Source: Eledone cirrhosa
Lineage: Eukaryota
DNA length: 64,000 nucleotides
Direction of reading: 5' to 3'
Assembly: GCA_964016885.1 (NCBI GenBank)
Contig: CAXHJY010000231.1
Span: 62,001-126,000, forward strand
Positions 8,503 through 12,410 of this stretch are shown piece after piece (the first letter of the stretch is position 1; each line of letters starts with the position of its first letter). Below the pieces are notes generated by a model. The model was not told where the DNA came from, ran no database searches, and worked only from the letters and a program-made list of their open reading frames with translations. The position numbers and the translations under genes are program-made.

Positions 8503-11500
8503 TTATCTCCAGCCTGTATAGGTTGGCCACTGGTGTAGGAGGGAGTTTGTTGCTGCTGCCCGTAGGTTTCCCTCGTGTCTTGCTGTGGGCTCATCCGGGA
8601 TCCTGGATAACAAGGTGTCGAGATGTTTCTTAAAGACATCCACCTCCACGTCATGCAACTCTCGCAGATGCCTCGGCAGCCTGTTGAAGAGTTGAGGGCC
8701 CTTGAATCCCAGGCTATTGCAATACCTGCTCCTTATTCTAGATGTGGAAGACGGGACCTTTGGCACCACACAGTGACGTCCTGTTCGACGGTTGGTCCAG
8801 CTCCCAATGCCAAAGTTTGGTGCTAGTCCCTCCAGGATTTTCCACATGTAGATCACTGCGTATCTCTCCCGTCTTCGCTCCAAGGAGTAGAGGTTCAGTT
8901 CCTTCAGCCTCTCCCAGTAGCTTGTCTCCCTCATCTTGGCAATCCTCTTGGTGTAGCTTCGCTGGATTGCCTCAAGCTCCGTGGTTAGTTTGACACTATG
9001 GGGTGACCACAGCTGGGAACAGTAGTCCAGGCGGCTTAGGACAAAAGTCCTCCACAGTGTCAACATGGTGTCTCGATCTCTTGTAAGGAAAGTTCTCAAG
9101 ATCCAGCCAGCGAATCGTCTACATGCTGTCGCAACCTTCATGATGTGTGAAGAAAAAGATGCATCATCGCTCATGTCTATGCCCAGGTCTCGTATCGATT
9201 TTGACACGGGGATATCGGTCCCTCCTGGTCCTGTGTAGCTGTGTTCCGGTATATTTGTGTTTGTGTTTGCAGGTTTGTATTGTAGGGCTTGGAATTTGCC
9301 AGCATTAAACTGCATGTTGTTTTCTTCCGCCCATCTGTATATGGCATCCAGATCCTGCTGTAAGAGGGCAGCGTCAGCCGGGTTTTTGATTGCCTGTGCT
9401 ACCTTAGTGTCATCAGCATAGCTAGTGAGGGATGTTGTTGCATGCACCACAGAGGGCATGTCCGAGAGAGCCACCAAAAACAGTAGTGGTCCCAGGACTG
9501 TCCCCTGAGGCACCCCACTTGTTATCGGTGTTTCCCTCGAGAGGGCCCCATTTGCTGCGACTGCCTGGCTTCTGTCCCTTAGGAAGCCATGCAGCCACTC
9601 ACCTACTTTTCCAGTTATGCCGAGTCCGTGTAGTTTGTGACATATCATTCCGTGGTCGACCTTGTCAAAGGCCTTCGCAAAGTCAAGATATATCACGTCT
9701 ACATGTGAGCTGTCTAGTAGTTGTCTCGGTAGCCAGTCGTAGTGATGTAGCAGCTGTGTAAGGCAGCTTCTTCCTGGGCGGAAGCCATGTTGCGTGCTAG
9801 TCAGGCGGTCATTTTCTTCGAGGAAAGTGATTAGTTTCTTTCTGACGACTCGCTCCATGACCTTACTGATATGCGACGTCAGGGAGACTGGCCTATAGTT
9901 GTTGGCCTCCGCTCTACTACCTCCTTTATGGATAGGGCATATTGTGCCTTCTTTCAGCTCCCTGAGTAGTACACCGCTAGCCAAGGAGCTTCTGAAGAGC
10001 ATCTTCAGTGGAGTTGCTAAGGCCCGCTTACATATTTTTAGGAGAACTGCTGGGAATCCATCAGGTCCAGCAGCCGAGTCTGTTCTAATTTCATCAATGG
10101 CGTACACCACATCCTCCTCCGTTATGTCTATGTGGTTGATGGTTGCCATTTCTTGATGTAGTGTTGTGGCATCAAAGAACTCCTCTGGCTTCGTTATTTG
10201 CATGTGCCTCAGTGGACATGTGAAGACACTTTTGTACTGTTCGTTCAGTATTTCACATATCTCTTGGGGATTTTCGGTTAATGAACCGTCCGTGTGGAAG
10301 AGTGGTCCAATCTTGCAGTGTACTGAGGCAGTTTCTTTTGCAAATTTAAAGAAGGCCTTAGGGTTTGTTTTAATGTTTTCTATGGCCCTGTTCTCTTTCC
10401 TTGCCCTCTCATTCTCATGTGAAAGCTTGAGTGCAATCTCGGTGTCAAGTAGTGCACGTTTCAAATAGGATTCCTTCTTGTTTTGGTTTTGTTGACTATT
10501 CAACTGGTTTGAGAGTTTAGTTCTACGTCTCATAAGGATTTTCCTATCTCTGGGAATAAGATTTTTGTGTCTGTTTGCCTCTTTCTCCGGGACACACTTT
10601 TTGCATATGGTGTGTATCGTTGTCATGAAGTGTTGAAATTGTGTCTTAGTGTCTTGTGTGGCGATGTTTGCACTCCATGTTTGCTTTTGGATTTCACTCT
10701 TAATCTTCTTCCAGTCAGCCCCGTAGAAGTTAAGGCTGGATAGCGTCCCGGAGCTTCTTGGTGGTTTTGTCTCTGTTGGTTCTCTTGGACCACATATCAT
10801 TAGCTCTACCAAGTTATAATCCGAGAGAATTGTTGGTGTCACCTTTACATTGTGGATGAGCACTTCGTTGTTTGTAAAACAGAGGTCCAGGACATTTTCG
10901 CCTCTTGTTGGGAGGAGTATTGCTTGCTCCATGAACAGCCTGTGTGTGAGGGCCAGCAGGGATTCCGTCTGTCTCTGTTCTATTGACGTCATTCCAGGGA
11001 GGAGGTGGCCCTCAGGCCATTTGACCTTTGGTAGGTTGAAGTCTCCCAGCAGTAGGATGTTGAGACTCTGGTCCAGTTTGTCAAGGACCTCTTCTATCCT
11101 ACTTAGGCTATCCTCAAATTTACCCTCATGACTGGGGGCATCGGGCGGCCGATATGTGACACATATTACCGTCTGTAGTTGCTTCATATGTATTATCAGT
11201 GTGTCACAGACTGAGTTTGAATGTGTCAACAGTACAATTGGTGTGACATCTTCACGGATATACAGAGCAACCCCACCATGAGTTCTCTCCTTCCTGTCCG
11301 AACGAAATACAGTATATTTCGGTATATGTATTTCTGCATCTGCTATACTGCTTGTCAGGTGCGTTTCGGTTAGTGCCATGCATAGTGCTTGATTGCTTAT
11401 GGCTAAGTCTCCCAGGTAGGAAATTTTACTCATGTTGCTGAGTTTCACCAGGCCCCTGACATTCAACAGCAGCACTGGTGTGACTTTTGGGGTGCCAGTA

Positions 11501-11544
11501 ATGGCTGTCGGTATGACACCTGGTCTGGTGTCAGCGGCGGCCAC
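8503..11544 (-). CDS. LINE ORF2: APE endonuclease + reverse transcriptase, uninterrupted
   Basis: [71 protein letters not shown]; no ATG before the first EN motif. Confidence 0.95.
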
Positions 11545-12410
11545 TCTGGGTCCCTTAACTGCGGTGGTCTCGAGTGCTGGTGTGGATGACCCTGGCTCTG
11601 GAGACGATGCAGCCAGGTCAGCTGTCCCACAATCTTCTCTGCCATCACTAAAAAATTTTTCTGATCTGCTGCTGCCATCTGTATCTCGTCGGCATATGCG
11701 TTCCTTCTCCTTGTTGGTGCAGCACGCGCGACATCAGCATACTTCTGGAGCGGCTTATTTCGGCTTTGGCTGGGGCATGTTGCGCGAGTATGATGGGCAT
11801 AGTTCGTTTGAGACCTAGGGTGGGCGAATCTGCATCCCATCCCTGTCTCTCCATGCCAGCATGTCCCGTTCTTGAAAAACTTGCACATTACTTGGGGTTT
11901 TTTGCTCCCAGTGTCTCGGTGCTTTCTGTTCTTTCTTTGAACAGTTGTCCACTGGTCCCTCTGCGCTTGGTTCTCCTTCGGAAGGTGATTTCGCTTTTCA
12001 CCTTTGCCCTTAGCTTGTTGGTTGCCCGGCCTGCCCTCCCTGCCTGTAGCGGAGGGTATATCATTTTCTTTCAGGTCCGTGCTTGTGCTCTCCTCCTTTT
12101 CTTTTTCCTTTTCCTCTTCCTTTTCCCTCTCCTTCTCCTCATCCTTCCCTTCGGTTTTCTCCTCCCTGAGGACACGGCTTAGCATCGCCATATGAGGCGC
12201 TATGAGGACATACGCCTTCTCAATTTCTTTTCTCTTTCTCTCTATCTGTGCCAGGGTCCTCAGAAACCCATGGCTCTTCAGGTTCTCCGCCATCTTTTTG
12301 CTTGGTGGAGACCCATCAGCCATAGTCCACCCCTTGATCAAAACCGCTAGTTCCATCTTCGACCAGTTTCGTTGACTCCTGATTTCACATTTTTCCTGCA
12401 TGCAGTCCAT
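11463..12410 (-). CDS. LINE ORF1: Myb/SANT-like N-terminus, charged region, CCCH zinc finger
   Basis: First ATG at 12410 (MDCMQEK); WSKMELAVLIKGW...GFLRTLAQIERK; CKFFKNGTCWHGETGMGCRFAH; overlaps the ORF2 frame. Confidence 0.75.
   Translation of the reverse strand: MDCMQEKCEIRSQRNWSKMELAVLIKGWTMADGSPPSKKMAENLKSHGFLRTLAQIERKRKEIEKAYVLIAPHMAMLSRVLREEKTEGKDEEKEREKEEEKEKEKEESTSTDLKENDIPSATGREGRPGNQQAKGKGEKRNHLPKENQAQRDQWTTVQRKNRKHRDTGSKKPQVMCKFFKNGTCWHGETGMGCRFAHPRSQTNYAHHTRATCPSQSRNKPLQKYADVARAAPTRRRNAYADEIQMAAADQKNFLVMAEKIVGQLTWLHRLQSQGHPHQHSRPPQLRDPEWPPLTPDQVSYRQPLLAPQKSHQCCC
11649..11655 (-). other. Candidate -1 ribosomal frameshift slippery site U_UUU_UUA
   Basis: In ORF1 frame AAT TTT TTA; the -1 frame is the ORF2 frame and is open from there to 8503. 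Confidence 0.65.

Follow-up and report, generated by a model that had tools for sequence, protein, structure and literature searches.

The window analysed here, a stretch of 64,000 nucleotides of the Eledone cirrhosa genome, contains on its minus strand a full-length copy of a LINE (family A; positions 13328-8425), delimited by sequence reading and inserted in a (TA)n array. A 5' end shared by 14 of 30 family A copies supports these boundaries as full-length; the family has 785 first-look candidate loci in the genome, with 5'-truncated copies present and sequence depth dropping from 3' to 5'. The 5' UTR is about 0.9 kb long (12411-13328) and ends in a CT-rich tract and a CAG that sits 4 nt ahead of the ORF1 start codon. 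ORF1 (11463-12410; ATG at 12410, TGA at 11465-11463) encodes 315 aa, comprising a weakly SANT-like N-terminus (Pfam Myb_DNA-bind_4, E=0.0084, under that model's cut-off), one CCCH-type zinc-finger motif identified by sequence reading (11820-11885), a conserved F-L helix and a Q/P-rich tail; relatives have weak zf-CCCH matches. The ORF2 frame (8503-11733) spans 1076 codons, lies one base behind ORF1 (-1), and encodes a linker, an APE endonuclease (EN; motif-I Asn at 11463-11461) and a reverse transcriptase (RT), with Pfam matches to EN and RVT_1. In the 3' tail (8425-8487), GAGTAAAA-type repeats come after a pair of predicted hairpins. ORF1, the ORF2 frame and both Pfam domains are all present, and the element is an intact LINE, as the sequence-only reading had proposed; it is young and probably CR1-type.

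At the junction of the two reading frames, ORF2 has no ATG before its first endonuclease motif. Its first ATG (11433) falls after LLLNVRGL, and the frame is open from 11733 to 8503, overlapping ORF1. Within ORF1 the codons AAT TTT TTA (11657-11649) place the slippery heptamer U_UUU_UUA (11649-11655) in the phase appropriate for a -1 shift. TTTTTTA occurs once in ORF1 across all phases, and a search of the whole ORF2 frame found no in-phase copy. Slippage by -1 at this predicted site would enter the EN-RT frame as S-D-G-R-E-D-C, giving a predicted fusion of 1302 aa that retains the CCCH motif. The segment that follows (11463-11648) is a dual-coding overlap, with the ORF1 helix and tail in frame 0 and an S/T/P/A-rich linker in frame -1; it includes an in-frame GTG in good Kozak context (11542-11544), a candidate non-AUG start. 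The missing ATG, the open overlap and the phased heptamer had been described in the sequence-only reading, and its equation of UUUUUUA with the HIV shift site agrees with the relevant passage of PMC5009743.

An RT tree (FastTree) that was built without named L2, Daphne or Jockey references places the family as sister to five stork proteins (support 83), which we infer to be CR1. CR1-like traits include an ORF2 with APE endonuclease and RT and a 3' end made of hairpins and short tandem repeats, not poly(A). The APE-RT ORF2, the upstream PHD finger in most relatives and the short tandem 3' repeats resemble those of CR1-lineage LINEs with a PHD-type ORF1 (PMC4120745), and we note that the ORF1 PHD and CCCH matches are weak and mostly under Pfam cut-offs. 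In some CR1/L2 subgroups a single ORF carries the PHD together with EN-RT (Metcalfe and Casane 2014, PMC4120745), an arrangement that the predicted fusion would mimic. In contrast, the combination of PHD, tandem CCCH and Q-rich tail is not listed among types I-V in that paper, whose main text does not contain the words CCCH fingers, overlap or frameshift. The N-termini of database proteins say little for the most part, since gene callers place the start beyond the site; FF[R/S] is present in two of 24 long extensions, one of them a false motif match.

The same heptamer in the same phase is present in family A, in a second family of the same genome (family B) and in 22 metagenome families, the 24 being the set that remains after dereplication at 80%; family B and the metagenome families have EN identities of 27-71%. 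All seven positions are invariant in 24/24 families and the neighbouring positions are variable, with a G directly after the heptamer in 23. The site lies just before a conserved ORF1 helix (F-L-E/D/G-x-x-x-L...), whose first residues are the encoded F-L. With amino acids fixed, a synonymous-codon null gives log10 P of -39.5 for the 24 families, -23.8 for 14 families below 55% identity and -11.4 for seven deep lineages below 45%, these values assuming independence of related families; Phe-Leu codon choice alone cannot explain the conservation. Of 80 metagenome loci taken, 54 have a visible EN start. In a quick EN tree of 55 rows (53 metagenome loci and families A and B), all 27 rows with U_UUU_UUA fall in a single clade of 37 rows, and the site is found in 0 of the 18 rows outside it (two of which are cut by a contig end). 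Eight of the remaining ten clade rows lack the site region through contig ends or truncation, and the other two, L180 (G_UUU_UUC) and L197 (U_UUU_UUG), retain both frames despite their variant heptamers. The heptamer families also form a single clade by RT (support 99). Family B, with 38% EN identity to family A, reads AGT TTT TTA GGC; its -1 frame opens two codons before the heptamer and has no ATG over 76 codons, and the heptamer is kept in 22/22 anchored copies (8 of 30 were not anchored). No further family emerged from the genome with two queries, the top matches to P0002 being all family A (30 loci examined) and P0006 retrieving A and B, and a scan of viral contigs found no relative.

In 19/24 families a stop closes the -1 frame no more than 11 codons upstream of the heptamer (median 4), and downstream the frame is open for 59-223 codons across families, with 146 stops in 1850 upstream codons against none in 2452 overlap codons. 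The ORF1 amino acids alone predict 62 -1 stops in the overlap, and the third frame has 157. Part of this zero follows from the search design, the initial hunt for heptamers having been confined to the open ORF2 frame; a search that ignored frame added one site, the U_UUU_UUG of L197. ORF1 is itself open beyond chance (no stops against 43 expected), and its stop precedes the EN Asn by 2-71 nt in 24/24 families whatever the overlap length. An in-frame ATG upstream of EN had been named in the sequence-only reading as a refuting finding; none lies between heptamer and EN Asn in family A or in 16 of the 24 families in all, and in four of the other eight it is just 1-2 codons before the Asn. Family A has no ORF2 AUG at or next to the ORF1 stop, and no AUG position is conserved across families.

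Within family A, the 30 best-matching copies, a biased sample in that they were chosen by similarity, all have A5T6 with no indel in the overlap. An exact match to 13 nt upstream is found in 140 of 310 copies, compared with 274 of 310 for a downstream control. The heptamer is altered in 17 of 40 non-matching copies, corresponding to ~23% of all family A copies, and these alterations look like recurrent hot-spot mutations because the copies share almost no rare variants. That so many copies carry a mutated heptamer speaks against a role in frameshifting. The near-absence of rare shared variants likewise led us to reject amplified sub-lineages with a broken heptamer. An ADAR origin of the four TTA-to-TTG copies was also rejected, there being no excess of private A>G changes (4 of their 47 private changes versus 46/412 over all 40 copies).

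The layout, the phase of the heptamer, its conservation and the open -1 frame from heptamer to EN are direct observations. Because there is no EN-proximal start and a -1 overlap extends from a heptamer kept in 24 families, we consider it likely that ORF2 is made by programmed -1 ribosomal frameshifting, giving a fusion of zinc-finger ORF1, EN and RT. The majority of ribosomes would read through and complete ORF1p with its zinc fingers, helix and Q-rich tail, and a minority, with Phe and Leu tRNAs on UUU UUA, would slip back one base and continue into a protein of ~1300 aa in which the ORF1 zinc finger or fingers precede a disordered S/T/P linker, EN and RT. The slip rate would then set the ratio of ORF1p to RT, as for retroviral Gag and Gag-Pol. 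The retrovirus-like fusion translation suggested in the sequence-only reading is supported, with heptamer and phase conserved at the nucleotide level in 24 divergent families. The chances seem to us evenly divided for a broader proposition, that a large animal CR1-type lineage makes all of its RT as a Gag-Pol-like PHD/CCCH-EN-RT fusion at the HIV heptamer with no conserved RNA stimulator, and that frameshifting is ancestral for CR1 ORF2.

We judge it unlikely that ORF2 is started close to the ORF1 stop by termination-reinitiation or internal initiation, at GTG 11544 or at an AUG in relatives, with the heptamer serving otherwise or in parallel. This reading accords with the closeness of the ORF1 stop to the EN Asn in every family, with an ORF1 more open than chance predicts, and with AUG-independent initiation being favoured for mammalian L1 (PMC5009743). 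GTG 11544 is in good context and retained in 108/109 matches among stored loci (some copies counted twice), and P0001, P0002 and P0049 (60-70% identity) have a Met 16-19 residues before the Asn; however, this Met is absent from the relative P0051, and the GTG or ATG may merely reflect a Trp codon of ORF1. Where ORF1 ends, the TGA-ATG belongs to the ORF1 frame and encodes five residues, and reinitiation leaves unexplained both the invariant heptamer and a -1 frame that from that exact point stays open over 59-223 codons. Still less probable is a simple conservation of the ORF1 Phe-Leu dipeptide with the heptamer as by-product, a reading already largely refuted: F-L does open the conserved helix, but the synonymous-codon null fails even for the seven deep lineages, TTA is rare among Leu codons in these elements (3-28%), and ORF2 would be left with no way in.

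Two other readings place the frame change in the RNA, and we hold both to be very improbable. If TTTTTTAG were a 3' splice acceptor joining an upstream exon to the ORF2 frame in cis or trans, the G after the heptamer in 23/24 families would be accounted for, as would the TTTTTTACAG of the L187 family and an Octopus vulgaris gene model (P0010) that joins ORF1 to the ORF2 frame here, apparently via a predicted intron. However, there is no upstream pyrimidine tract (0.24-0.60 pyrimidines in 25 nt), an AG lies within 15 nt upstream in 13/24 families, C is never tolerated within the T run, and both frames persist in L180 and L197, which lack the AG. Moreover, the spliced join is found in none of the 40 differing copies, though a cis-preferring RT would copy spliced RNA, and none of nine joints listed in DNA unitigs ends at the site. 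Slippage of RNA polymerase or RT in the T run could alternatively add one base and create a single fused ORF read by an unshifted ribosome; the run is indeed a mutation hot spot, and single +1-insertion copies occur (L071, L090). Six Ts make a short run for polymerase slippage, and the terminal A of the heptamer is also invariant. Exact A5T7 is found in no copies versus 140 with A5T6, and this counts against slippage because retrocopies should be enriched for fused RNAs. The same absence, with a family A layout that is not one ORF, rules out the simpler concern that the window copy has lost a continuous ORF through an indel.

A downstream stimulator of the proposed frameshift is less evident. 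Both pairings named in the sequence-only reading do occur in the sequence, one of them as the TGACCTGGCT/AGCCAGGGTCA stem of a predicted hairpin with a putative role (11581-11631), but a stimulatory stem or pseudoknot is unsupported: the window copy does not fold beyond chance (z = -0.93, with folding just as good in 39 of 200 shuffles) and the consensus structure across 16 alignable families is empty. The usual spacer between heptamer and stimulator is 5-9 nt (PMC5009743), and neither the predicted hairpin and stem nor GAUGGCAG fits it, the inner hairpin beginning 17 nt, the named stem 28 nt and GAUGGCAG 2 nt after the heptamer. Variants in the hairpin common to at least four of 40 copies number three in the loop and one in the stem (G-U to G-C). 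In folding without pseudoknots, z is below -1.5 in 9/24 families versus 2-4 of 22-24 in control windows, and five families, B among them, fold at -5.5 kcal/mol or weaker. Hairpins are predicted 6-8 nt downstream in some families and none is common to all, so our likeliest guess is that stimulators are diverse or non-structural, as in alphaviruses. We also considered whether the 3' tail pairs over a long distance with sequence behind the site; as a general feature this is not supported (permutation p 0.021-0.36, uncorrected, for nine families and six window choices). In family A, the hairpin loop and the 3' end do share matches of 8 and 9 bp.

The proposed arrangement recalls HIV-1 gag-pol in its identical U_UUU_UUA, its -1 direction, an upstream ORF extending past the site, and a zinc-finger RNA-binding protein fused to an RT-bearing enzyme (PMC5009743). 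It differs in belonging to a non-LTR element with an APE endonuclease and no protease or integrase, in lacking a conserved stem-loop at 5-9 nt, in an overlap of 59-223 codons, and in that the shift is predicted from sequence. Alphavirus 6K/TF also uses U_UUU_UUA. Its -1 frameshift has diverse 3' stimulators, one without RNA structure (PMC5009743), but this is an RNA virus and the product a short transframe protein, not an essential enzyme. The idea of -1 frameshifting is not unprecedented in LINEs, as a review states that ORF2 translation requires it in Dictyostelium TRE5-A and TRE3-A, which are likewise APE-RT LINEs (PMC5911963). These are amoebozoan, tRNA-gene-targeting elements with an unrelated ORF1, and the legend concerned gives no slip site or experiment (PMC5911963), whereas here the heptamer is defined and conserved in 24 families, of which two come from an animal genome. 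In the full texts searched, with Repbase, most subscription journals and all supplements outside their scope, a slippery heptamer is nowhere described for animal CR1-type LINEs.

The textbook view is that LINEs use reinitiation for ORF2. How ORF2 is translated is a long-standing question for LINEs, and the usual answer derives from mammalian L1 and Bombyx SART1, two-ORF elements whose ORF2 is translated from a bicistronic RNA by (re)initiation, yielding a separate ORF2p (PMC5009743, PMC10275272). In family A, by contrast, the -1 overlap is long and begins at a slippery site, and no AUG in the ORF2 frame lies at the ORF1 stop; a heptamer kept in 24 families makes the alternative directly testable by one synonymous mutation. 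If frameshifting operates, the RT of this lineage would carry its own RNA-binding zinc fingers, plus a PHD finger in most families, which would offer a ready basis for both cis-preference and chromatin targeting; RT dose would be set at the ribosome, and the elements would be exposed to host frameshift inhibitors and tRNA supply. Gene models for this abundant group would also be affected, as they mis-start ORF2 or, as in P0010, bridge to it with false introns.

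The LINE at 13328-8425 (- strand) is 4.9 kb long and lies between (TA)n arrays, and its closest named proteins are from Octopus. ORF1 (12410-11463, -) encodes 315 aa, and the ORF2 frame, encoding an APE endonuclease (EN) and a reverse transcriptase (RT), is open at 11733-8503 (-), one base behind ORF1 and overlapping it. The ORF1 codons at 11657-11646 are AAT TTT TTA GTG, and the heptamer U_UUU_UUA (11655-11649, -) is correctly phased for a -1 slip. In the ORF2 frame the first ATG (11433) is downstream of the EN motif LLLNVRGL; on the overlap, the phase of the heptamer and the lack of an ATG before this motif we agree with an earlier sequence-only reading. 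Because a protein begun at 11433 excludes the motif Asn, which is conserved in relatives and whose equivalent mutant cripples Zorro3 (passages of PMC1965478), it is likely to be defective.

The slip site is a trait of this family (family A) and not a peculiarity of the copy in the window. Family A is young and abundant (785 first-look candidates in the genome), and the 30 best copies, a biased sample as these are the best matches, all retain the slip site with an indel-free overlap. Among 150 scored copies the ORF2 frame is most often open for 1076 codons, as in the window copy, and the single-nucleotide indel that could have undone the sequence-only reading is not found in the 30 best copies. 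A less biased count used 310 copies selected by an exact downstream 29-mer; the 13 bases upstream are matched by 140 of these and 13 downstream control bases by 274. Forty of the 170 non-matching copies were fetched, in list order from the two largest contigs, and in 23 the heptamer is intact, the mismatch reflecting a changed preceding codon (mostly AAT to CAT or ATT), a 1-nt upstream deletion or 5' truncation; in 17 it is altered. Copies with an identical alteration have almost no rare variants in common, and the T run in inserted copies therefore acts as a hot spot for mutation. This weakens the support from within the family, but chance becomes a poorer explanation for invariance between active lineages.

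Family B was found in the same genome by an O. vulgaris protein search, and its EN is 38% identical to that of family A. Its ORF1 reads AGT TTT TTA GGC at the site, the -1 frame opens two codons before it, and there is no ATG in the 76 codons up to the EN Asn. Family B loci (L091-L120) are up to 98% identical to P0010, an Octopus vulgaris protein named 'fission process 1' that is a LINE ORF1-EN gene model with a predicted intron apparently bridging the slip site. Of 80 loci recovered from metagenome contigs, 26 without an EN start were excluded and another was too short to be placed in the tree. In a quick EN tree a 37-row clade (support 93) contains every one of the 27 rows that carry U_UUU_UUA; the heptamer is seen in none of the other 18 rows. 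Of the ten other clade rows four are cut by a contig end, two start downstream of the site, two are 5'-truncated, and the last two have, one each, G_UUU_UUC and U_UUU_UUG at the homologous position, both reading frames being intact. The heptamer families also group in an RT tree (support 99), adjoining stork proteins (support 83) taken to be CR1. Five related loci outside the clade (L195, L201, L207, L209 and L218) are single ORFs without the slip site, in which a Cys-rich PHD-like region shares the EN frame.

The 27 heptamer rows represent 24 families at <80% identity (27-71% pairwise), all of which keep the heptamer and its phase; none of its seven positions varies, in contrast to the flanks. 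A conserved ORF1 helix begins with the Phe-Leu that the heptamer encodes, and under a null with amino acids fixed and synonymous codons drawn from each element's own usage, T-TTT-TTA has a probability of 0.002-0.08 per family. Assuming independence, the combined log10 P is -39.5 for the 24 families and -11.4 for seven lineages of <45% identity. In 19 of 24 families a stop closes the -1 frame no more than 11 codons upstream of the heptamer. This frame has 146 stops among 1850 upstream codons versus none among 2452 overlap codons (62 expected; 157 in the third frame), a zero that is partly built in by the site-finding procedure. Since the -1 frame is closed upstream and open from the heptamer, ORF2 appears to be entered there.

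The downstream pairings noted in the sequence-only reading are present, but a role as stimulator is not supported: in the window copy they are no better than shuffles (z -0.93), they begin 2 or 17-28 nt after the heptamer versus the usual spacer of 5-9 nt, and 16 alignable families give no consensus structure. Mean z for the first 70 nt after the heptamer is -0.77, compared to -0.07 to -0.42 in control windows, and is below -1.5 in nine of 24 families. Several families have a predicted hairpin 6-8 nt downstream, and there is little predicted structure in family B and four others. Such diversity resembles that of alphavirus frameshift stimulators, one of which is without RNA structure (passages of PMC5009743). 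Pairing of the downstream region with the 3' tail is weak overall in nine families; the family A hairpin loop (11598-11610, -) is complementary to 8479-8487 and 8506-8513 (9 and 8 bp with G-U), which is not general across the nine.

Reinitiation is the strongest rival and may act in parallel with frameshifting. The ORF1 stop is in every case 2-71 nt upstream of the EN Asn, ORF1 stays open beyond chance (no stops versus 43 expected), and a GTG at 11544 is well placed in family A; however, the heptamer and the long open linker are left unexplained, and the ORF1 stop may mark the first frame-0 stops made by hydrophobic EN codons, together with selection for a long Q-rich tail. Alternatively, an AG at the junction could be a 3' splice site joining the ORF2 frame, as G follows the heptamer in 23 of 24 families and P0010 bridges the junction there, but no pyrimidine tract precedes it, AGs are common upstream (13 of 24 families), C is never admitted in the T run, two intact families lack the AG, and neither a spliced retrocopy (0 of 40 non-matching copies) nor, among nine joints listed in DNA unitigs, one ending at this site was seen. 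Polymerase slippage in the T run predicts T7 retrocopies, and although single +1 copies of other forms exist, the A5T7 form is absent from the 310 copies.

The comparative evidence is strong, and ORF2 is probably expressed by the -1 frameshift fusion that the sequence-only reading proposed. Most ribosomes would complete ORF1p and a minority would slip on UUU UUA, giving a predicted 1302 aa product of ORF1 residues 1-254, an S/T/P linker, EN and RT. ORF1 of relatives has a PHD-like finger and tandem CCCH fingers (weak Pfam hits), and the fusion would retain the zinc fingers but neither the ORF1 helix nor the Q-rich tail. Its architecture would be like that of single-ORF PHD-EN-RT elements (passages of PMC4120745), given that a Cys-rich region shares the EN frame in several loci outside the clade. 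U_UUU_UUA is the HIV frameshift site, as the sequence-only reading stated, and an unusual mode of initiation is favoured for ORF2 of mammalian L1 (both from passages of PMC5009743). Excerpts elsewhere describe reinitiation in SART1 (PMC10275272), a required -1 frameshift in Dictyostelium TRE5-A and TRE3-A (a review legend, PMC5911963), and suggested +1 frameshifting or reinitiation in Paramecium elements (PMC5405496). The words frameshift, slippery and overlap are absent from the main text of PMC13343379 on vertebrate CR1-group elements, passages of PMC7175516 and PMC5006619 hold nothing on LINE frameshifting, and we found no frameshift report for animal CR1-type LINEs in literature outside supplements, Repbase and most subscription papers.

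Family A ORF1 (11466-12410, -) is without a PHD finger, has one CCCH finger versus three in relatives, and is weakly SANT-like at its N-terminus, with the helix and slip site nevertheless kept; an N-terminal swap is possible. In the 5' UTR a long CT-rich tract (12415-12440, -) terminates with CAG, 4 nt from the ORF1 ATG, and resembles a 3' splice site; it is exact at 19 of 25 anchored loci, with point variants at four and truncation at two, and no spliced copy was seen among them. 2A-like NPGP motifs, as described in a published abstract, occur in loci L170 (167-1867; GVETNPGP in ORF1) and L188 and in database proteins P0033, P0034 and P0039, suggesting StopGo recoding in an element that also has the slip site. 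(TA)n flanks are present in 12 of 14 full-length family A copies shown, the other two being cut at the locus edge, and three of five family B 3' ends continue into (TA)n (loci L271, L273 and L275); microsatellite targeting is possible for both families. Other retroelement-like ORFs in the window are at 2-2202 (+), 19633-23130 (-), 36977-37525 (+), 40307-43261 (-), 45831-50038 (-) and 50951-51961 (+), which from their motifs we take to be a Penelope-like RT with a GIY-YIG-like region, a 1165-codon RT ORF, and RTE-like and other RT fragments.
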